Shown here in pieces: positions 567 to 19,418 of a DNA stretch of 64,000 bases. This DNA comes from an uncultured Gammaproteobacteria bacterium (GTDB lineage: Bacteria; Pseudomonadota; Gammaproteobacteria; Steroidobacterales; Steroidobacteraceae): NCBI GenBank assembly GCA_963721095.1, contig CAVRHU010000004.1, positions 142,187-206,186 on the forward strand, in the 5' to 3' direction. The notes below the pieces were generated by a model. That model was not told where the DNA came from. It saw only the letters and a program-made list of their open reading frames with translations, and did no database searches. Each line of letters begins with the position of its first letter. Within the stretch, counting starts at the first letter, position 1. The position numbers were made by a program, and so were the translations under genes.

Positions 567-814
567 GTCTTACTGCCGCATTTGATTTGGCAAAGGCGAG
601 TTGGGCTCGCGCGCCTAACTCGCCGGCGTCCGAACCGGCGCCGCGATTCCGCGAGCGGCGACGAAAGCCACCTACAAGCATCCCCGCCCCGCAGCTCGCT
701 ACGGTCAAACCACACCACAACGCCCGCCGCGCGCAACGCCTGACACAGCAGCTCCGCGGCAGCCGCATCCTGCGACGCGTAGCTCAAGAACACGGCTTTA
801 CTTAAGTCGGTCAA
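548..814 (-). pseudogene. 5' fragment of a second TIR-domain gene, fused to repeat-derived sequence
   Basis: MTDLSKAVFLSYASQDAAAAELLCQALRAAGVVVWFDRSELRGGDA parallels the first 51 residues of the neighbouring TIR gene, with high nucleotide identity between about 683-722 and 421-460. After about codon 46 the frame runs into the GC-rich repeat (RRRVRRASPTRL...). Confidence 0.7.
570..675. repeat. Partial copy of the recombinase-tail-associated repeat unit (hairpin 595-624)
   Basis: GGCGAGTT-N14-AACTCGCC at 595-624 is the reverse complement of GGCGAGTC-N14-GACTCGCC at 16902-16931, except for one compensatory base-pair change. The flanking CCGAACCGGCGCCG resembles CCGAACGGCCCGGCCG of the 16.9 kb copy. 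Confidence 0.6.
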
Positions 815-1955: not shown

Positions 1956-2960
1956 CTACTCCGAAATCATCCCAATCGTCTTGAGCCACGTCTCGACCAA
2001 CTTTGGCCACTGCGCGATCGGCAACTGGCTCGGCCGCAGCCCAAACGCATGTCCGCCGTGCGCGTATAGGTGCATTTCGGTGGGGACGCCGGCTTTCTGT
2101 AGCGCGACATAATAGGCCAACGACTGCTCCACGCCGTCCACGGTGTCGTCCTCGGCTTGGAGTAAGAAGGTGGGTGGCGAGTCGGCGCGTACCGGTATAT
2201 CCGCGCGAAGTTTCAAATCCGTCTCGTCGCGTGTGGCGTGGTCCTCATCCTCGTGCGCCCACAGGTGGCCGGGATAGACGAGAATGGCAAAGTCAGGTCG
2301 GCAGCTTAAATCGTCGGCGGCATCCACGGGCCGGTACGTCCGCTGTGAGAAGTGCGTGCTGACCGCGGCGACCAAGTGCCCGCCGGCAGAAAAGCCGATC
2401 ACACCGACTTTGTGCGGATCGACGTGCCACTACGCCGCGTGTTGGCGCACCAGCCCCAAGGTGCGCTGCGCGTCCTCGAGCGCCGTCTGCACCTTCGGGT
2501 AGACGCGTCGTTTGTTCTCCTCGTCCCACCACGGACCCGAGCCCGGCACGCGGTACTTCAGCAATACGCAAGTGACGCCGCGCGAAGTCAACCAGTCGCA
2601 GATCTCCGTGCCTTCCAAATCCATGGCCAGGAATTGGTAACCCCCGCCCGGAAACACCACCGCAGCCGCACCGGTGTTGCGGCCCTTGGCCGCATACACC
2701 GTCATGGTCGGTCGGCTGACATCGTTAGCCCTGGGCCACCATTCACGTCCTGCGGGCGGACCAACAGATTCCGGTTTCGGGTTAGGTATCACATCGGGTA
2801 CCGCGCCCCGCCAGATCGGCACTTGCGTGTGACCCGGAGAAGGTTGCCACGTGTCCGCACGGACGCCATTGCCGCCAAGTGCTGTGACGACACCAAGAGC
2901 AAATATCAATGCCTTCATCGCGACTTTTGACACGCTCTTTCCTCGGTCCGCATTTGCCAT
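1956..2960 (-). pseudogene. Exported alpha/beta hydrolase (acetyl esterase/lipase-like), interrupted by one in-frame TAG
   Basis: ORFs 2430..2960 and 1956..2402 are in the same frame and are joined as ..LVRQHAA*WHVDPHKVGVIGFSAGGHL. The TAG lies at 2430-2432. A GxSxG nucleophile elbow, the ..AEDD.. motif and a C-terminal HGGHAF are present. There is an N-terminal signal peptide. Confidence 0.8.
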
Positions 2961-3154
2961 ACTTAAGCCTTTCTATGAGCCGGTTCTAAAGGTCACCGTT
3001 ACATCACCCTGAATCCATAGTGGGCGAATGTTACGCCGCTAACATACACACACGCAGTACTATTCATGTTGTTGGCTGTTCGTAGCAGAGGCGCCTGGCT
3101 AGCCAACCCGGCCTATCATTTAGTACCCTCCAAGAGTCTTCCGGAGATACAAAC

Positions 3155-4099: not shown

Positions 4100-4510
4100 T
4101 ATTTCTTCGTCGGCGGGGCCGTTCGGCCGCGACGCTTCACCATCCCTGGTTCGCTGCGGTCCAGCCAGTCCATCCATGTAGTCGCAGACATGCTGCTCAC
4201 CCATGCCCTCGCCCCGCACGACGAGTTAGAGACGCGCGTAGCAGGCGCGACTCTAACCGCAACGCTACGGTGTCCCTGCTCCGCTGCGGCCCTGCCGGAC
4301 TATCCATAGTCCGGCGTTCGGTGTGTCCACCTCACCCTTCCGGACTGCCGTCCGTTGCCACCTCCCTGTGGCAATTAGCGCTCGAATAACGGCACCGTCG
4401 ACAACTCCTTCCCTGGAGACCTCTTTCTTGGCGCGGCAGCGCCGAGCCGGCTGGGCCGCACCCGGCTTCCGGCGTCCGCCTTCTCCACCTATCTGTCGAA
4501 CCTGAATCAA
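4097..4510. repeat. Dispersed copy of the recombinase-tail repeat unit
   Basis: 4105-4126 matches 16856-16877 at 21/22. 4204-4229 matches 16886-16911 at 23/26. The palindrome TTGCCAC-CTCCCT-GTGGCAA lies at 4355-4374, and a hairpin GTTAGAG/CTCTAAC at 4225-4257. Confidence 0.65.
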
Positions 4511-5935: not shown

Positions 5936-7111
5936 TCAATTGCCGTTCTCGCTGCTTTGTCCAAAATCCACGACCATGCCGTTTAAAGGGAGCTCGCCTT
6001 TACGATTCTCCCATACCTTGTCCTTATTCCTGACGCGGTAGTGGTCGATCAGATAGGGTAGTCCCTCGCCTGCCAATAACGTCGGTGATGTCGTCACTTC
6101 GAAATGTAAATGCGGTATGGGTGGATCCCCAGAACAGCCGATGCGCGCCAGAAGCTGGCCGCGCCGCACACGTTCACCAATCTTGACGCGGATACTGCCG
6201 GGCGCGAGATGGAAGTACCAAGCGTATTGGCCGGCGCCAAGATTCAGCACGATCGTGTTACCGCCGACGGTGTCTATTGTTATGGGCACGGCATGATGGA
6301 AGGTTTCAGGTGATCCCGGAGTGTTGTTGGGAATGCCATCGCGGGCCTCCTCTACCGTCGCGTCCGCGACCGCGAATACAGGCTGGTCGTACGAGTAATA
6401 GGAGCGAAGATCCTGCGGATCGCCCGAAAGAATTGAATCCTCCTTCTGGATCATCCAGTCGATGGCGTACCGACGCGAGATGGTCACTTGTCCGTTGATC
6501 GCAAGTATTCCGCGGCGGTGATGATTACTGGGATCATTGCTCGGGCCATCCGACGCTAACCATCCCGCCCCTCTCACAGGGGGAGCGAGCAATTGCAGAT
6601 CGTTGTGGTGAGTATCGACGACGGCACCTTCGATCTTGGAAGTGCTAGTTACAACACGATGGCGCAGGCGCGCGGGTATCCGTGCATGCCCGTCGATGGG
6701 CACCCACATAAAGGCAACAGCCGTCGCGCCGCCACTCAATTCGCTAACGTCGGGCGCCTGGGCGCCAACAGACTGCAAAAGCGCCCCAAGTTGTTTGTCC
6801 TCATAAGAGGCAAGTGGAGTTGCAGACGGTTCTTGATCATCGAGCACGTCTATGCGTTGAAGTTTCATAGAATTAGCGGATAAATTCGTCAGGTACAGCT
6901 CGTACGCAACATACCTATGGCCCGCACTCTGAAATGCGGTCGGCGCGAACGGCGCGCGCATTTCGAGCTGTAGTGGAAATGGCGAAACGGTCGGACTGCT
7001 TTTGGGGCCAGCGTCCGGAACAGCCGAGTAGGCAAATCCACTAGTGACGTAGAGGAGCACCGCGAGCAGGAAGACTCTCATCATTTTCTGACCCCGGTTG
7101 AAATGACGCAT
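5936..7111 (-). CDS. Exported M23 family metallopeptidase
   Basis: 391 aa with a signal peptide. The C-terminus YAWYFHLAPGSIRVKIGERVRRGQLLARIGCSGDPPIPHLHFEV is the M23 HxxxD/HxH region. The start may be at an internal Met near 7084. Confidence 0.8.
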   Translation of the reverse strand: MRHFNRGQKMMRVFLLAVLLYVTSGFAYSAVPDAGPKSSPTVSPFPLQLEMRAPFAPTAFQSAGHRYVAYELYLTNLSANSMKLQRIDVLDDQEPSATPLASYEDKQLGALLQSVGAQAPDVSELSGGATAVAFMWVPIDGHARIPARLRHRVVTSTSKIEGAVVDTHHNDLQLLAPPVRGAGWLASDGPSNDPSNHHRRGILAINGQVTISRRYAIDWMIQKEDSILSGDPQDLRSYYSYDQPVFAVADATVEEARDGIPNNTPGSPETFHHAVPITIDTVGGNTIVLNLGAGQYAWYFHLAPGSIRVKIGERVRRGQLLARIGCSGDPPIPHLHFEVTTSPTLLAGEGLPYLIDHYRVRNKDKVWENRKGELPLNGMVVDFGQSSENGN

Positions 7112-7359: not shown

Positions 7360-7450
7360 CACCGCGCGCTCCCCCCACGCTCTGCGTAGCGCGTCGGCAT
7401 TCCTGTATCTTTCCACGTTCTTCGCCGGCCGGGCTGTTCGGGCGACGCCG
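7360..7450 (-). pseudogene. Orphan 3' tail of a Cre-like tyrosine recombinase gene, plus an adjacent repeat segment
   Basis: Own translation gives ..GRRRTWKDTGMPTRYAERGGSAR, compared with QAGRWKDTRMPMRYAERVLATRGG at 17.0 kb. The upstream CGGCCGGGCTGTTCGGGC (7427-7444) matches CGGCCGGGCCGTTCGGGC (16862-16879) at 17/18. Confidence 0.5.
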
Positions 7451-7671
7451 CGCCCTCTTGCTCTGCCATCCTGTCTTCGCGGAGTCCAGCCTGTGCGTTC
7501 GTGCACAGTCGTTGCGTCTGCGTTCTGACATTTAATCAGAACGCGAGAACCGCGGCAGCGCCCGCACAGGGGCGCCGCGATGGATGGTATGCGTCGCTGT
7601 GTGATAAAAGGCCTTGTTTTATAGGTATTTTATCGTGCATCGAAGATCTTTATCAGGTATGATTATCGCTC

Positions 7672-8982
7672 ATGGAAGGGATGAGTGAGCTGCCCGATGA
7701 TGTGGAGATCTTAAAACAGATCGTCCTCGAGCAGCGCGCCCGGCTCCTCTCCAATAAGCTGCTGATCGAACAACTGAAGCTCGAGCTCTCGAAGCTTCGG
7801 CGCATGTGAGGACGTCTCCGAGGTACTCGAGTACGTGCCGACTCACTTCAAGGTGATCCGCCATGTTCGACCGAAGCTCTCATGCCCAAAGTGCCAGACG
7901 ATCGTGCAAGCAGAGGCGCCTTCGCGACCGATCGCGCGGGGTCTCGCCGGTCCAGGGCTACTCGCCCATGTCCTCGTATCGAAGTATTGCGATCACTTGC
8001 CATTGTACCGGCAGAGTCAGATCTATCAGCGAGATGGGATTGATCTCGATCGCTCAACGCTCGCCGACTGGGTGGGTGCGGCAAGCGCGCTCCTCGATCC
8101 CCTCGTGACCGCGATCAGAGATTACGTCTTCAATGCCCACAAGATCCATGGCGACGATACGCCGGTGCCGGTGCTTTGTCCTGGCCGCGGAACGACGCGA
8201 CAGGGGCGCCTGTGGAGCTACGTGCGCGACGATCGACCAGCGGCCAGCACCGATTCGCCGGCGGTTTGGTTCGCCTACTCCCCGGATCGCAAGGGTGAGC
8301 ACCCGCGCAGGCATTTGCGGGACTTCGTCGGCATCCTGCAGGCCGATGGCTATGCGGGATTTGATCGTCTCTACAACGACCAGGATCCCGATCACCCGAT
8401 CAAAGAGGCAGCCTGTTGGGCGCACTCGCGCAGAAAGTTCTACGATATCCAGGTGGCCACCGACTCGCCCATTGCTAGCGAAGCGCTCACCCGCATCGGT
8501 GAACTCTACGGCATCGAGGCAGAGATCCGCGGCCAATCGCCCGAGATTCGTCGACAGATCCGCAGGGCACGCGCCGGACCGAAGCTCACCGAGCTCCATC
8601 GGTGGCTCATCGCTACGGTGATAAAACTACCGAAGAAGTCAGACCTCGCCGGAGCCATCCATTACGCGCTCGCGCGCTGGAAGGCGCTTACCCGTATTGC
8701 GATGACGGGAGCATCGAGATCGACAACAATGCTGCGGAACGGGCTTTGCGCGCGGTTGCTCTGGGCAGGAAAAACTATCTCTTCGCCGGCGCCGATTGTG
8801 GCGGAGAGCGTGCTGCGGCGATCTATAGCCTGATCGGTACAGCCAAACTGAATGAGCTCGATCCGGAACCCTATCTGAGATACGTGCTCGAGCGCATCGC
8901 AGAACATCCGATTAATCGGATCGAGGCTTTACTCCCATGGAGTGTGGCTCCGATTCTTTGCACCCTGCCATTAGCCGCCTGA
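7672..8982 (+). mobile_element. Decayed IS66-family transposase (TnpC): internal deletion plus frameshift
   Basis: The N-terminus MEGMSELPDDVEILKQ...LKLELSKLRRM* runs directly into ..EDVSEVLEYVPTHFKVIRHVRPKLSCPKC, so the middle is missing. A frameshift near 8694 separates ..ALARWKALTR from YCDDGSIEIDNNAAERALRAVALGRKNYLFAG...LLPWS. Confidence 0.9.
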
Positions 8983-9453: not shown

Positions 9454-9799
9454 TATCGAACTACGTCGTCAATGCGGTCATGACCGGACGCTTAGTACGC
9501 CGGGATAAACCGGCGAGAAGGAGAGAATGAAAGAGTCTTACATCGAAGGAGTAGCGATCCACGATGACCCCGAGTCATGCGCGGGCAGCCGTAAGGCTGG
9601 ACGTGAAGTGTTGACAGGGGCACACACAGGTTCGGTATTGAGCCGCGAAATCAGGTTATCTAGGGCGCCGACGCTGTTAAGCGAAGCGGAAGGCAACATA
9701 CGTCAGAGGCGTCATCGCAAGTCTCTGTCTAGCCCTGCGCGGTCGCAGACCCGACACATGTGTGGAACCTTCTTGCGCGAGAACCGGGAGATCCCATAG

Positions 9800-11353
9800 A
9801 TGTCTGCTGCAGATGGTGCATCAGGCCGCTCCGGAAAGGCTAATCGCCGTACCCCGGGGATGCACGTCGATGGGAAGTCGGACGGGTCCGTAGTACCAAC
9901 GAAGCAGCCGAACAAAGCCGAAGGAATGGCCGCGGAGGTTGTGGAGGGAAGGGGCCCGATCAAGGGGAACACGGGCAAGCAAAACGCGTCCCGGACACAG
10001 AGCCGGATCGATGCGCCAAGTGCGCTTGAACGTGTACGCGAAGCTGCAAAGGCAGATAAGAAGAAACGGTTCACGGCGCTGCTGCACCATGTGGACGTAG
10101 ATCGGCTGCGCGAGGCGTACTTTACTTCGAAGAAGCATGCCGCAGCGGGAGTCGACGGCGTTACGTGGCAGCACTATGGCGAGCAACTGGAGGACAACCT
10201 TCGGGCGCTCCATGCCAGAGTGCATCGCGGAGCGTACCGGGCAAAACCCTCGCGGAGAGTGTACATCCCCAAATCAGATGGCCGGCAGCGGCCTTTGGGT
10301 ATCGCAGCTTTGGAGGATAAGATCCTGCAGAGCGCTGTGGTATCGGTGATGAATGCGATCTACGAGAGTGACTTCCTCGGCTTCTCATACGGCTTCCGGC
10401 CAGGACGTGGAGCGCATGATGCACTCGATGCGTTGGCGGTTGGAATTACGGGCAAGAAGGTGAACTGGGTGCTCGATGCGGACATCCGTGGGTTCTTCGA
10501 TACTATCGACCACGGCTGGCTGATCAAGTTTATCGAGCACCGCATTGCGGATCGGAGGGTCCTGCGGCTCATCCAGAAATGGTTGAAAGCGGGGGTCATG
10601 GAACAGGGCAAACGCACGTCAACGGATGTGGGCTCCCCGCAAGGGGCGACGGTATCGCCGTTGCTAGCCAACATCTGTTTGCATTATGCGCTTGATCTGT
10701 GGGTGCAGCAGTGGAGACGGCGGCGTGCGCTCGGTGACATCATCATCGTGCGATACGCTGACGACTTCGTGCTCGGCTTCCAACGTGCCTTCGATGCAAA
10801 GCGGTTCCTTGGGCACCTTCGCGAAAGACTCGCGAAGTTCCGCCTGGAACTGCATCCGGACAAAACCCAGCTTCTTCGGTTCGGGCGGTTTGCCGCCGCT
10901 CAGCGGAAGGAAAAGGGTGAATCCGGTGCACCGCAGACCTTCAACTTCCTCGGGCTGACGCATTGTTGCGGACGCTCGAAAAGTGGGTTGTTCCTGCTGC
11001 TACGTCATACGATACGTTCGCGGTTGACGGCGAAGGTTCATGAGATCACTCACGAACTGCGCCGTCGTCTGCATGAACCGATCGTCTCGCAAGGCAAATG
11101 GCTAGGTGCTGTGCTGCGCGGACATTACGCGTATTACGGCGTGCCGACCAACATCGAGGCGCTCGACGTGTTCCGGTGGGAGGTTACGCATCGCTGGTTC
11201 AAGTCGCTTCGGCGCCGAAGCCAGCGCCGCCGCTTCAACTGGGCGCGAATGGATCGACTCGCGCAACAGTGGCTTCCTCGTGCTCGCATTGTTCATCCTT
11301 GGCCGCAGCAGCGCTTTGCTGTCAGAACCCGAGATAAGAGCCCAGTGCGGTAA
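9800..11353 (+). CDS. Group II intron reverse transcriptase/maturase (no endonuclease domain seen)
   Basis: 517 aa. Motifs seen: KSDGSVVPTKQPNK, RRVYIPKSDGRQRPLGIAALEDKILQ, GSPQGATVSPLLANI, and YADDFV in IIVRYADDFVLGF. A maturase X region (GHYAYYG) is present. No HNH/CxxC endonuclease motif is visible at the C-terminus. The start may be the Met at 9860. Confidence 0.93.
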   Translation: MSAADGASGRSGKANRRTPGMHVDGKSDGSVVPTKQPNKAEGMAAEVVEGRGPIKGNTGKQNASRTQSRIDAPSALERVREAAKADKKKRFTALLHHVDVDRLREAYFTSKKHAAAGVDGVTWQHYGEQLEDNLRALHARVHRGAYRAKPSRRVYIPKSDGRQRPLGIAALEDKILQSAVVSVMNAIYESDFLGFSYGFRPGRGAHDALDALAVGITGKKVNWVLDADIRGFFDTIDHGWLIKFIEHRIADRRVLRLIQKWLKAGVMEQGKRTSTDVGSPQGATVSPLLANICLHYALDLWVQQWRRRRALGDIIIVRYADDFVLGFQRAFDAKRFLGHLRERLAKFRLELHPDKTQLLRFGRFAAAQRKEKGESGAPQTFNFLGLTHCCGRSKSGLFLLLRHTIRSRLTAKVHEITHELRRRLHEPIVSQGKWLGAVLRGHYAYYGVPTNIEALDVFRWEVTHRWFKSLRRRSQRRRFNWARMDRLAQQWLPRARIVHPWPQQRFAVRTRDKSPVR

Positions 11354-13985: not shown

Positions 13986-14688
<703 letters not shown>

Positions 14689-16371: not shown

Positions 16372-16711
16372 TCAATCTTCTCTTGGCAGCAAGTGTTCCA
16401 GATGTTCTCTACTTATGGCGGTTCATCCGACTCTCGCGCTGCGCCTGAGTCGATCATTGGCCTTGGATTCCTTGAAATCATTCGATCCATCGATTGCCTG
16501 CAGGAAATCCGTCAGTAGATCATTCAGTTGCATTATCTGCGAATTCCAAAGCTAGGCCTAGACACAGGCCCCCCCATGATGCACACGAAGCAATCGGCGA
16601 TAAAGAGAGTGCTCAACCAAACCTCAAGCGGCCGGACGGCTTTCTGATTGGCCATGGAGCCCCTGGTGTTTTCATCGATTTCCGTCAGATTCGGCTTCCG
16701 GACCGCGTCCG

Positions 16712-16995
16712 TTGCCACTTCCCTGTGCCAAGCCGGCATTCAGGCTCGCCCCTGGCTCTTGGCCGCGCGCGCCATGGCGCCGCGCGAGGCCAAGACTTTC
16801 TCACCGTATCGCATCGGCATGCGCGTGTTTCGCCATCTTCCGGCTTGAATATACCCTTCGTCGGCCGGGCCGTTCGGGCTGTCCCTGCCCTCGCCCGGCA
16901 CGGCGAGTCAGGCGCGCGAGCCCGACTCGCCTTCCGGAATCTCAGTCCGCGCACTTTCGATTCCGTTGCCACTTCCGTGTGGCAATGCGCGCCAA
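16712..16995. repeat. Tandem repeat unit (254-bp period) downstream of the Cre-like recombinase gene, including an orphan copy of its last 35 codons
   Basis: Palindromes TTGCCAC-N6-GTGGCAA at 16966-16985 and TTGCCAC-N6-GTGCCAA at 16712-16731. Hairpins at 16935-16965 and 16902-16931. The orphan tail IQAGRWRNTRMPMRYGEKVLASRGAMARAAKSQGRA* lies at 16850-16740. Confidence 0.75.
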
Positions 16996-17921
16996 TCACA
17001 GTTTTCCCTGATCCTGCGCCGCTTGTGCCATCCCGCCTCGCGTCGCCAGTACCCGCTCCGCATAGCGCATTGGCATTCTCGTATCTTTCCATCGTCCAGC
17101 CTGCATTACGGACGCGAGGCTTATGTTCAACGCTAGCAAATCCTGAGCCGCCCCAACCCTTGCGGAATGCCCGGAAATCCTTTCCCACTCTTTCTTCTCA
17201 AGCCCTATCCATTGACCCACTTTCCTGAATACCGTCGACACCACCCCTCCTTGATTCCCCCTTGCTTGATCCATGAGAGACTAGCCTCATCGTCAGCGGC
17301 GACAAATACGCTGTTGCCCCCTCCCCCGTGGTATCCGTCTTCGACCTTCTTATTAATAGAGATCCTGCCCATCCCCCGCTTCCGCAAGATCCTCTACCCT
17401 CAACGAAACCAATTCTTCTCTGCGGCACATTGTGTCGTAAGCCACCGCCAAACGCTCGATCTCGAATGTCTTCGCAAGTTTCTCGGCTCAATCGATAGGA
17501 ACACTTCGATCTCTTCCCAGATCAATTCCCGCGCCTGTTTTTGCCTACCCAGCACATTCCTTCCCATCTCCTTCAACGCCAACCTCACCTCTTCAGACGC
17601 CGTCGGATCCAAAATCCCCGATGCGCGATGCGCCCGCCCAATGGTCGACACATAGCGCCGCACCGTCGCCGGCTTCTTCCCCTTCCCCAAACACTCAAAC
17701 ACAAACGCCCGCACCGTTTTAGCCGCAGCCGTCAACGACTCCACGCGATAGGTCCGACAACTTTCGGTAAAAACGTCCCAATCAGCCTTCCAGGCACGAA
17801 TGGTGTTCTTCGAAAACGCCCCGTGCGCCATCCCTGCCCAATCCGCCAACCGCTCCGCGACTGCCAAACTGCTTGAAACCATTCGCATGAGCCCACGAGG
17901 CAAAACGCCCTGTCCGAACAA
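16996..17921 (-). pseudogene. Cre-like tyrosine recombinase, multiply frameshifted
   Basis: Three overlapping frames carry the protein. The N-terminal SAM-like region is at 17400-17921. The middle part LLIRRSKTDTTGEGATAYLSPLTMRLV is at 17198-17491. The C-terminus SGHSARVGAAQDLLALNISLASVMQAGRWKDTRMPMRYAE is at 16996-17274 and resembles Cre (SGHSARVGAARDMARAGVSIPEIMQAGGW). Confidence 0.8.
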
Positions 17922-18018
17922 GCAGTTTGCAGGCTGATTCGGCTATCCCAATGCCCGCACTGCGACGGTCCGTAGGAACGGGAATGCCTTGTATTCCTTT
18001 GAATCCACGGATTTCATT

Positions 18019-18064
18019 GATGTTGATCTAGCTATGCGTTATTATCAACATAATCATCAACATC
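18019..18064 (+). promoter_or_regulatory. Putative mazEF operator/promoter region
   Basis: Inverted repeat GATGTTGAT (18019-18027) / ATCAACATC (18056-18064), plus the direct repeat ATCAACA twice, in AT-rich DNA 10 nt upstream of the antitoxin ATG. Confidence 0.45.
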
Positions 18065-18073
18065 CGTATAGCT

Positions 18074-18307
18074 ATGAAAACTATCCAAATGACTATTGAT
18101 GAGAAGCTGCTCAAGCTCGTCGACAAAGTGACGCGCAGCCGACGCACCACCCGCTCCGCATTTATCCGCGTCGCTCTGGAAGAGGAGATTCGACGCACCT
18201 TGGTCCGCGAAAAAGAAGCACAGCATGCCGCAGGCTATGCCGACAAACCCGTAGTTCCCCGCGAATTTGATCTCTGGGCGGATGAGCAAGATTGGGGCGC
18301 CGCGTGA
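18074..18307 (+). CDS. RHH-type antitoxin paired with MazF
   Basis: 77 aa. MKTIQMTIDEKLLKLVDKVTRSRRTTRSAFIRVALEEEI has the ribbon-helix-helix pattern. Its stop overlaps the toxin GTG in GTGA. Confidence 0.75.
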   Translation: MKTIQMTIDEKLLKLVDKVTRSRRTTRSAFIRVALEEEIRRTLVREKEAQHAAGYADKPVVPREFDLWADEQDWGAA

Positions 18308-18624
18308 GACGCGGTGACGTGTGTTGGTATTCTTTCAAAACCCCAGACAAGAAACGGCCGGTGCTGATACTGACGCGAGACTCGGCAATCGGCATCTTAA
18401 ACTCCGTGACCATTGCACCCATCACCTCCACAATCCGCAGCATACCCACAGAGGTCGTGCTAACTGAGGCCGACGGTTTGCCGAAAACCTGTGCTGCAAA
18501 CTTCGACAATCTACAGACCGTACCTAAATCCCAAATCGGCAATCGCATTGCTCACCTGACTTCGCGCAAAATGCGGGAGGCGGTCGCCGCGCTGACCTTC
18601 GCACTTGAACTCGATGCTGAATGA
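18304..18624 (+). CDS. mazF: MazF/PemK-family endoribonuclease toxin
   Basis: VRRGDVCWYSFKTPDKKRPVLILTRDSAI...VTIAPITSTIRSIPTEVVLTEADGLPKTCAANFDNLQTVPK is the canonical MazF/PemK pattern. Confidence 0.85.
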   Translation: MRRGDVCWYSFKTPDKKRPVLILTRDSAIGILNSVTIAPITSTIRSIPTEVVLTEADGLPKTCAANFDNLQTVPKSQIGNRIAHLTSRKMREAVAALTFALELDAE

Positions 18625-18705: not shown

Positions 18706-19050
18706 GTGATCAAACCCATGGGTCTTCACGATACGACGTTCCATCCGACGGCGGCGATGGGGCCACGTCTGGCGGAGGGCCACGACGCGGCCCTCAAGCC
18801 CATACCGCCACTTGGCATCTTCAACGCCGCCGGCGGCCTTCGCTCCACGCCGCAAGATCTAGCGCACTTCGCCGCCGCAATTCTGCCGGGCTCCGGCGCC
18901 CGCATCGCACCCGACGAGCTGCTCGCCGTTCGGCGGCCCGCGCCCTGGATCGGCGGATGCAGGCCCTGGGGTGGGAAGTACTGGATGCCCCGGGAGGCAC
19001 GTTGCCGCACTCAAAACGCTGTTCGCCCCGTTGCAGCGCGTACGCACTCG
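18706..19050 (+). pseudogene. C-terminal fragment of a serine hydrolase (beta-lactamase fold), frameshifted
   Basis: IKPMGLHDTTFHP...EGHD...AAGGLRSTPQDLAHFAAAIL, then ..LGWEVLDAPGG in another frame. No SxxK-containing N-terminal part is present. Confidence 0.55.
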
Positions 19051-19418
19051 AGTCCCCGTCAAAGGCTCGCAAACCAAGGCCATCCCAGCACTGCGTGTCA
19101 TCCTGCGCCATATCCAACGCAGCGATCTCAATGTGAACCTACACCCGCGCCAACACCCGCAACGTGTATCGCAAGACGGTCGACGAGATTGCCGACATCC
19201 GCACAGACGTGGTGGAAAGTAACCGGAGTTAGGCCTCGTGGTTGTCCCGGCACGCGCACGAACCGGCATTCAGCAAGTCGACCTGCGTCTGCGCCGATCC
19301 GGCGCCAAACAAAGCACCACGCTTGGCAAGATTCAGCTGCTTCTTAACGGTGATGCGGGACACATAGTGTTTTGGAAGTAAATCGGGATCAATTCGCGCC
19401 GCGCGGGTCGCGTTGCTG

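Follow-up and report, generated by a model that had tools for sequence, protein, structure and literature searches.

In the systems that associate repetitive extragenic palindromic (REP) sequences, or REP doublets forming hairpins (REPINs), with REP-associated tyrosine transposases (RAYTs), a copy of the repeat lies directly beside the gene of the candidate mobilising enzyme (PMC3116915; PMC2817692). In the rAID-1 clusters of Bacteroidales, a XerD-like recombinase is followed by a co-directional array whose intergenic sequences are repetitive (10.1101/471110). The present study deals with a small structured repeat, named E, that accompanies a decayed Cre-like tyrosine recombinase gene in a stretch of 64,000 nucleotides from an uncultured Gammaproteobacteria bacterium of the Steroidobacteraceae (assembly GCA_963721095.1, contig CAVRHU010000004.1, positions 142,187 to 206,186). 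This whole stretch is called the window, and positions are counted from its first letter. E shows an unusual and strongly non-random tie to Cre-like recombinase genes. We propose, with a probability of about one half, that the locus would be the dead, mosaic remnant of a recombination hot spot formed by a Cre-like recombinase gene and E, a small structured mobile repeat. In a full-text literature search, no description of an element like E was found; rAID-1 was the nearest architectural analogue.

A structured repeat beside a decayed recombinase gene

E is a discrete non-coding unit of 110-270 nt, made of four hairpins (P1 to P4), of which the first is a 7-6-7 palindrome. In the window, a full copy lies between the 3′ end of the recombinase pseudogene and an orphan copy of a recombinase tail. 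An earlier examination of the letters alone (the sequence-only reading) had drawn attention to the split recombinase gene, the palindromes, the hairpins and the orphan tail, and all of the features that it listed are present where it had placed them. The copies of E and the recombinase remains to which the text refers are the following.

16996-17921, minus strand: Cre-like tyrosine recombinase pseudogene, a decayed mosaic (reading frames, Pfam, comparison with homologues)
16856-16985, minus strand: E copy A, full short form (covariance model, 140.9 bits; fold z = -4.55)
16985-16966 (P1, loop ACGGAA), 16965-16935 (P2), 16931-16902 (P3) and 16899-16864 (P4), minus strand: hairpins of copy A
16863-16856, minus strand: 3′ end of copy A, CGACGAAG
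16740-16850, minus strand: orphan recombinase 3′ end of 35 codons, with the catalytic-Tyr motif RY, type II lineage (tblastn)
16690-16731, minus strand: E copy B, truncated after P2 (covariance-model match 16669-16736, 25.7 bits)
4105-4374, minus strand: E copy C, a 270-nt long form; P1 perfect, insertions in the P4 loop and in the P2-P3 interval (covariance-model matches)
7377-7500, minus strand: 3′ part of a long-form E, ending in CCGAACAGCCCGGCCGGCGAAGAA near 7418 (weak covariance-model match, tblastn)
584-667, plus strand: degenerate short E copy, P3 intact, P1 eroded (covariance model, 25.4 bits, E = 8e-4)

According to the covariance model, all five E copies of the window are found within its first 17 kb and none between 18 and 64 kb. 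The palindrome TTGCCAC-N6-GTGGCAA is perfect at 16966-16985, 10 nt past the TGA of the recombinase gene. A second one is located 254 bp downstream of the first, at 16712-16731, where copy B starts 8 nt past the stop codon of the orphan tail; it reads TTGGCAC-AGGGAA-GTGGCAA, with one mismatch, and has the flank TCCGTTGCCAC in common with the first. A third palindrome, again perfect, is found at 4355-4374. The palindrome pattern has four matches in the window for 0.25 expected, and none of 100 shuffles reached four. Each palindrome opens a conserved unit that reaches through further hairpins to CCGAACGGCCCSGCCGACGAAG. In copy A, the hairpins at 16935-16965 and 16902-16931 were confirmed and belong to the fold of z = -4.55.

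In the complete layout, P1 is followed by P2, a purine-rich linker, P3 (loop TCGCGC), P4 and the 3′ end ACGRAGAA, P4 being built of an outer stem of 7 bp that leads, through the internal loop GA/GAACR, to an inner hairpin. Short forms measure 110-130 nt; in long forms, extra sequence is inserted in the P4 loop and between P2 and P3. Copy C, which has no tail after it, resembles the long forms of loci L001, L007, L024 and L178 (L and P numbers are our handles for loci and homologues, respectively). The ends of E are sharp: the information content is close to zero immediately 5′ of TTGCCAC and 3′ of ACGRAGAA. These two ends are not inverted copies of each other, so that terminal inverted repeats are lacking, and comparison of filled with empty sites inside recombinase genes gave no target duplication. 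On these two grounds, E was rejected as a classical MITE (a miniature transposable element with inverted repeats) of the DDE-derived kind.

The fold of E is conserved. When nine copies are aligned, 13 of 35 pairs show compensatory changes. The covariance model derived from this alignment retrieved 30 strong copies, in which 24 of the 35 pairs change on both sides. Among these copies, 95.5% of the cells are paired, as against 84% after shuffling and 26-44% with slid partners, figures that lean towards structure because the alignment was fitted to the model. On the recombinase-sense strand, G·U or U·G pairs fill 48 cells and A·C or C·A only 16. Because of this excess, the selected fold is placed on the recombinase-sense strand, as RNA or as single-stranded DNA. 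Neither a search of the whole window at the Rfam gathering thresholds nor a permissive search of two E regions, which returned noise there, gave a family matching E. Judged from its 30 copies and the compensatory changes in 24 of 35 pairs, E is well supported as a new structured repeat family. The alignment also shows that the P3 loop TCGCGC is near-invariant and that the P4 internal loop GA/GAACR is kept while the surrounding stems co-vary; these two loops look like specific contact points.

Two simple roles were considered and set aside. The palindrome cannot be reduced to a terminator, a possibility that the sequence-only reading had kept in reserve: no T run follows any of the hairpins P1 to P4, and no terminator-like site occurs in 16400-18200. 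Neither a promoter nor a terminator belonging to E itself was found. E was also examined as a mobile ribosome-binding cassette. A start codon lies 5-6 nt past the GGAG or GAAG end in only five copies, namely four tail junctions and one possible case (L181), and this role was rejected. Any start codon with an open reading frame (ORF) of at least 30 codons was found in 10 of 41 copies, a count that includes several doubtful TTG or GTG starts and has no control baseline. As to orientation, the upstream neighbour gene is co-oriented with E in 15 cases and anti-oriented in 9, and the downstream neighbour in 18 and 13, respectively, as seen with a crude gene caller that missed many genes.

Distribution of E and its tie to recombinase genes

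One genome per species was scanned for the palindrome together with CGGA. Among the 36 loci obtained, about 15 carry a whole E, and all 15 come from metagenome-assembled genomes (MAGs) of uncultured Gammaproteobacteria or Steroidobacteraceae. When genomes were scanned without bias for nothing but the E 3′ end, 20 matches were obtained, every one in a MAG of uncultured soil Gammaproteobacteria or Pseudomonadota; 5 of these 20 ends adjoin recombinase sequence. The same scan of metagenomes yielded at least 122 ends; among the metagenome matches listed, 7 of 122 adjoin recombinase sequence, and a further end is 0.7 kb away from a recombinase fragment. Because recombinase-like sequence represents well under 0.1% of a genome (a rough estimate), the enrichment of E at recombinases is very large. 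The sequence-only reading had considered that copies apart from recombinase genes would point to a generic REP element. Indeed, because most copies are not beside recombinase genes, E is a dispersed repeat; however, its enrichment at recombinases is far above chance. Solitary copies occupy ordinary intergenic DNA, for instance upstream of a mreB-like gene. A loose G+C-rich pattern, GCCGGGCGA-N9-39-GAACRGCCCGGC, was discarded: its 119 loci, in high-GC genomes, are evidently due to chance, and searching them with an nhmmer profile of E gave no real copy.

In five lineages, namely the window, L010, L038/L039, L042 and L045, E starts 2-14 nt past the stop codon of the recombinase; its 7-6-7 geometry is absent from four intact loci. 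Moreover, 6 of the 120 best homologues contain an E copy translated in frame, three after reference position 176 and three after positions 231-232. All recombinase-associated copies are in sense orientation. In L038, the order is recombinase, E, decayed tail, gene, short E and another decayed tail; in L011, E is followed by a tail and then by half of a P1. Near the recombinase genes that lack E, no shared lox-like inverted repeat was found.

Three further observations on E-like sequences may be recorded here. In L178, segments 2655-3140 and 6647-7060, which are 3.9 kb apart, are diverged copies (77-90% identical) of a larger unit consisting of a small ORF on the opposite strand (..FTVEEYESNGKTQKKWT.IGAAFPHKEG.GFSIELKAFPVDGRLVVLPPD, no Pfam match), E and a recombinase tail. 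One of these tails is of type II (see below) and the other of a distant type, and the junction GAATAGTATGGCG present in both corresponds to a GGAG-N6-ATG start of the tail ORF. In L028 (1085-2446), a 430-aa ORF, whose N-terminus resembles P4-type integrases by eye and which is unrelated to the Cre-like family, shares its last ~70 nt with a full E (2309-2446), and a further two E copies are found 0.3-0.6 kb upstream of this gene. Finally, Actinomycetota MAGs (L003, L004, L019, L029, L033 and L035) contain CCG-TTGCCAC-TGAATC-GTGGCAA-CGGAGTGGCAACGAGA, with the same 7-bp arms and with flanks conserved across several MAGs. This motif is not E and may be an operator or another RNA motif.

A mosaic recombinase gene with a foreign orphan tail

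The recombinase gene of the window (minus strand, 17921-16996) extends over three frames, as the sequence-only reading had it, with at least four frame changes. Compared with intact homologues, ~58 nt are missing near 17240. Because of the frame changes and of this loss, and since no intact frame runs through it, the gene is a pseudogene. Its conceptual translation matches PF00589 (Phage_integrase) with 38.5 bits and has more than 3,000 homologues, the best of which are ~322 aa long, 75-78% identical and mostly from soil metagenomes. The intact homologues belong to the tyrosine recombinases, and their motifs GHSxRVG and RMPMRY are invariant. For one of them, P0003, the best match among solved structures (PDB) is Cre, with E = 5e-27 over residues 44-316. 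Because this alignment runs along the whole length of the protein, the label "Cre-like", already used in the sequence-only reading, is correct.

The two parts of the pseudogene have different relatives. The 5′ half (17285-17832) is 87% identical to the L037 lineage and 79% identical to L038. In the 3′ part, identity amounts to 83% with L010 (16857-17224) and to 85% with L039 (16962-17234), while the overlapping segment 17018-17245 has only 71% identity to L037. On this evidence, the window gene is a chimera of two lineages, L037-like in 5′ and L010/L038-like in 3′. The switch of lineage, near 17240, coincides with the missing segment and with the in-frame E site of L010, L045, P0009, P0049 and P0059. 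As a side remark, the ~58-nt gap found there could be the scar of an imprecise loss of E.

Two types of tails are found among the intact homologues: type I ends with ...RYAERVLATRGGIAQAAKDQGKL and type II with ...RYGEKVLASRGAMARAAKxQGRx. The window gene itself carries a type I tail. The orphan tail, which begins directly past the 3′ end of E copy A, translates from 16850 to 16740 as IQAGRWRNTRMPMRYGEKVLASRGAMARAAKSQGRA followed by a stop codon. Its identity to residues 287-322 of P0043 is 88.9% (tblastn) and only 68.6% to P0003, whose lineage is the source of the tail of the window gene. When the nucleotides of the two tail copies are aligned, the mean column identity is 81%; a hand count of residues gave 24 identical out of 36 (67%). 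Because the orphan tail is 89% identical to the P0043 lineage and 69% to that of P0003, it is no duplicate of the gene's own tail, and the idea of the sequence-only reading that the tail was copied from the 3′ end of the adjacent gene must be abandoned. The unit that is repeated at the 254-bp spacing consists of the tail, the stop codon and the first hairpins, the remainder of E being located between the copies. After the E end at 7418, a third recombinase tail fragment, short and decayed (TWKDTGMPTRYAER), is detected by tblastn at about 7416-7377.

The same arrangement recurs elsewhere. A module composed of a replacement tail, a stop codon and E precedes the native tail in at least two independent lineage pairs, which belong to two recombinase subfamilies. 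In the window and in L038, the tail that stands over the native one (type "RYGEKVLASRGAMARAAK") is of type "RYAERVLATRGG..DQGKL". The corresponding pair in L221 and L222 consists of a "RYGEHTLAARGGMAKAAEIQNRS" tail over an "AITQAGGWKS.RMPLQYAEKINAARSG" tail; there, a more distant recombinase ends with ...SVMQAGGWKSARMPVRYGEHTLAARGGMAKAAEIQNRS and a stop codon, and after 8-14 nt come E and the second tail, AITQAGGWKS.RMPLQYAEKINAARSGMARAA... In L192, which belongs with L221 and L222 to the second subfamily, most of the first tail is deleted. L038 also carries a cargo gene between the tail and the next E. Orphan recombinase fragments are exclusively C-terminal, and in every case the 3′ end of E comes directly before them. 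Thus, the part of the sequence-only reading that saw a tandem accretion of gene tail and site is borne out by its recurrence in L038, L221, L222 and L192.

The architecture expected from a replacement of the 3′ end, with the copied 3′ end first and the displaced original distal, is present in the window, in L038 and in L221/L222. We propose that a resident recombinase gene acquired, by recombination, a module made of a replacement recombinase 3′ end, a stop codon and E. The crossover would lie where the last ~35-40 codons begin, or upstream of that point, and would push the native tail downstream. In terms of attachment sites, attP would correspond to E plus the replacement tail, attB to the recombinase gene around the start of its tail, and attR to the junction between E and the old tail. 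Repeated insertion, together with larger versions bearing cargo, would lead to arrays of E copies and orphan tails. In the window, the process would have stopped: the recombinase became frameshifted, one E was truncated, and fragments of insertion sequences (IS) as well as a group II intron would have invaded the region. We infer that the Cre-like recombinase itself would catalyse the movement of E; the crossover position given above is likewise a deduction, as is any binding partner assigned to the folded hairpins. If the 3′ end is replaced in this way, the absence of N-terminal orphans is explained. A model of the Sulfolobus spindle-shaped virus (SSV) type, in which attP lies within the integrase gene and the gene is split, was rejected since no N-terminal orphan was found at any locus.

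In its most complete form, this idea would make a Cre-family recombinase and the four-hairpin E, folded as a single strand, a new mobile system. E, by itself or accompanied by a spare catalytic tail and cargo genes, would insert in the 3′ coding region of the recombinase gene, swap the Tyr-bearing C-terminus each time, leave orphan tails and spread through genomes as solitary copies with CsrA-type GGA loops, a tyrosine-recombinase counterpart of REPIN-RAYT with integron-like capture. We regard this extended version as speculative and, taken as a whole, rather unlikely.

Several observations weigh against the hot-spot proposal. More than 90% of the E copies, among the metagenome matches listed, are solitary, with neither a recombinase nor a tail beside them; because of these copies, E must also move or persist alone. 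Four intact recombinase loci have neither E within 10 kb nor an obvious inverted-repeat site. Some tails have no P1 after them, and some post-stop E copies have no tail after them. The E-tail junction falls into three classes spread over ~10 codons, before MASVMQ, before (V)MQ or before W, and because it varies in this way, a single site-specific crossover fits less well. Once in existence, the arrangement could be spread and reshuffled by homologous recombination, acting on tails or on E copies, without any action of the recombinase, and the mosaic gene of the window may be an example of such an event. Finally, for the tail site there is neither a circular form nor a pair of empty and filled sites.

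P1: recombination core or RNA hairpin

On account of its short arms around a 6-nt spacer, the sequence-only reading had likened P1 to the core sites of tyrosine recombinases, such as lox and dif. The variation of P1 does not favor this view. The arms change in a compensatory manner (TTGCGAC/GTCGCAA, TTGCGCC/GGCGCAA, TTGCTAC/GTAGCAA). In one copy, the whole stem is replaced (CCACTAC/GTAGTGG) with the loop kept, and loop positions 2 and 6 vary freely between copies. Because the crossover spacer must match between partners and the P1 loops differ, a lox/dif core is awkward. P1 would therefore fit poorly as a lox-type core, and this assignment is doubtful.

The loop suggests another role. P1 reads CAC-A-N-G-G-A-N-GUG in 26 of the 30 copies, 21 of the 30 have A(N)GGA(N) in the P4 inner loop, and a single-stranded GGAAGG or GGGAGG forms the linker between P2 and P3 in 19 of 30. 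The consensus of CsrA obtained by SELEX, in which ligands are evolved systematically by exponential enrichment, is RUACARGGAUGU, and RsmE is associated with an ANGGAN hexaloop with AC/GU closing pairs, which together describe the high-affinity CsrA/RsmE hairpin (PMC7652899). At the level of sequence, E has what defines a CsrA/RsmA site: a hexaloop with GGA, AC/GU closure and extra GGA motifs nearby. The A-N-GGA-N loop of P1 would thus suit a CsrA/RsmA hairpin better than a lox spacer, and this predicted site may be taken as a lead. An action at the RNA level and a participation in recombination are not exclusive.

Alternative explanations

It may be envisaged that E acts mainly at the RNA level, as a dispersed REP- or MITE-like repeat with CsrA/RsmA-type hairpins, the link with the recombinase being secondary and the palindrome unrelated to recombinase binding. 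Transcribed within neighbouring mRNAs, E would have the putative role of titrating or recruiting CsrA, or of stabilising the transcript; it would ride on the same mobile islands as the recombinase, moved by unrelated machinery or by homologous recombination. The match of the GGA motifs of P1, P4 and the linker to the CsrA/RsmE consensus (PMC7652899), the strand-specific G·U pairs, the loop kept on an entirely different P1 stem and the location of more than 90% of the listed metagenomic copies apart from recombinases all go in this direction, as does the sole Rfam hint at P1, a very weak match to RsmV. However, such a role leaves unexplained that at least four positions in or beside one ~1-kb gene family are occupied, always in sense, and that the 3′ end of E stands before every orphan tail. 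The lack of a promoter or terminator of its own is a further difficulty, and we consider it possible, though unlikely, that E is primarily an RNA-level repeat. A plain local tandem duplication of the 3′ end of the gene, with hairpins serving only as terminators, would account for the 254-bp spacing and for the flank TCCGTTGCCAC common to both palindromes. Nevertheless, the tails come from different lineages (67% mutual identity, the orphan being 89% identical to P0043), copies A and B of E differ in form, and the architecture is found again in unrelated genomes as well as in a second recombinase subfamily. No T run follows any hairpin, and terminator-like sites are missing from 16400-18200; such a duplication appears highly improbable.

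In an integron-like platform, the recombinase would capture cassettes downstream of its gene, E being an attC-like folded site and the post-stop palindrome an attI-like entry. Runs of small, diverse and mostly co-oriented accessory genes are indeed found downstream of the recombinase, several E copies per locus lie on the same strand (three in L007, L028 and L038; four in the window, on the minus strand, within 13 kb), E folds as a single strand like attC, and L011 shows a half-P1 junction. The rAID-1 clusters of Bacteroidales, with a XerD-like recombinase and a co-directional array, offer a precedent (bioRxiv 10.1101/471110). On the other hand, the recombinase is not an IntI: an NCBIfam scan gave sub-threshold matches to Xer-type models and none to an integron-integrase model, and the nearest solved structure is that of Cre. 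The ends of E are not complementary in the manner of the R″/R′ boxes of attC, and four consecutive local hairpins are found instead. Most E copies are solitary in ordinary intergenic regions, the genes that separate E copies often lie on the other strand or number many per interval, and an exchange of P1 by P1 would have to cope with spacers mismatched by the differing loops. In addition, L037 and L040 have downstream accessory genes and yet no repeats at all. Cassette capture of this kind seems to us quite unlikely.

Surroundings of the locus

The first 17 kb of the window form an accessory region. It contains fragments of IS66 and IS21 together with a group II intron, toxin genes (PIN and MazEF) and assorted small genes. 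The features of this region and of its border are as follows.

18074-18624, plus strand: MazE/MazF-type toxin-antitoxin pair, divergent, beside the recombinase gene (Pfam RHH_1, PemK_toxin)
9532 to about 11440, plus strand: group II intron (Rfam, group-II-D1D4-6, 182.6 bits at 9532-9752)
7835-8833, plus strand: truncated IS66 transposase
14401-14670, minus strand: C-terminal fragment of the IS21 helper IstB
18706-19347, plus strand: beta-lactamase-family fragment, just beyond the MazEF pair

The region of the MazE/MazF pair is 82% identical to L037 4204-4962. The pair located near the recombinase gene differs from lineage to lineage (Phd/PIN, ParDE or MazEF in L037, L038, L039 and the window). 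Phd/PIN and ParDE are found directly upstream of the recombinase, and Phd/PIN overlaps its start codon. Because a KfrA_N gene often lies near the recombinase, a context of plasmid or island maintenance is suggested. The group II intron contains a 517-aa reverse-transcriptase ORF (9800-11353) and is on the strand opposite to that of the E copies; it was examined as a possible guest of E and found to be unrelated, as no E is present at its flanks, around 9532 and 11440. The IS66 and IstB fragments are further signs of a decaying accessory region between 0 and 17 kb. As to the beta-lactamase fragment, it is probably a gene remnant because profile positions 173-258 alone match.

Implications and comparison with known systems

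If the link between E and the recombinase is mechanistic, a small structured repeat would be mobilised by a Cre-like recombinase whose own catalytic end it rewrites; neither feature was found described in the literature search or in Rfam. Such a system would represent a tyrosine-recombinase branch of the REP/MITE world and a case of natural, modular swapping of the C-terminus in a relative of Cre. It would also provide a compact recombinase-site pair from uncultured soil bacteria. If the link is only hitch-hiking, what remains is a new family of repeats along with a decayed integrase locus. Given its CsrA-consensus loops, it is tempting to imagine that E is mobile DNA that spreads post-transcriptional control sites.

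As in the Cre/loxP-type pairs (Cre, Dre, Vika), a full-length Cre-like protein is found, with a dyad-symmetric sequence beside its gene in about half of the lineages. Lox-type arms measure 13-14 bp and those of P1 only 7 bp. In contrast with lox sites, the P1 arms co-vary freely, the central 6 nt differ, the palindrome always opens a larger element and four intact recombinase genes have no palindrome. With CsrB, RsmY, RsmZ and RsmV and with CsrA-regulated leaders, E has in common the A(N)GGA(N) loops, the AC/GU closure and more GGA motifs in the linker and in the second loop. E differs from these RNAs in being dispersed and multi-copy, without a promoter or terminator of its own; its stems are longer and more stable, and its binding of CsrA/RsmA is predicted.

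Integrons and rAID-1 resemble the present loci by the association of a tyrosine recombinase with an array of accessory genes and structured repeats, and attC is, like E, selected for its fold as a single strand. Here, however, the recombinase is no homologue of IntI, E is unlike attC, the arrays are loose and the copies are mostly solitary. To our knowledge, orphan recombinase tails are no described feature of integrons or of rAID-1.

With REP and REPIN-RAYT systems, the resemblance lies in a short, structured, non-coding and dispersed intergenic repeat that is found beside an enzyme gene. Nevertheless, the partner of E is a Cre-like tyrosine recombinase and not a HUH/Y1 transposase (RAYT genes were not searched for), E measures 110-270 nt with four hairpins rather than a 20-40 nt palindrome or an inverted pair of REPs, and it is found on one side of the gene only as well as inside it. 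In this last respect, E is like the Rickettsia palindromic elements (RPE), whose in-frame insertion in coding genes is tolerated.

Finally, the module may be compared with integrative elements that target the 3′ end of tRNA or protein genes, including their non-autonomous derivatives, of the CIME type. Several differences are apparent: the target is here the recombinase gene itself; the smallest module, made of tail, stop codon and E, is ~250 bp long, with non-uniform junctions; and the arm other than the tail is a four-hairpin repeat that also occurs in many solitary copies. In both cases, however, the incoming DNA brings a functional-looking 3′ end of the target gene, the original end is displaced as an orphan at the far junction, and repeated events lead to tandem orphans that are 3′ fragments only.

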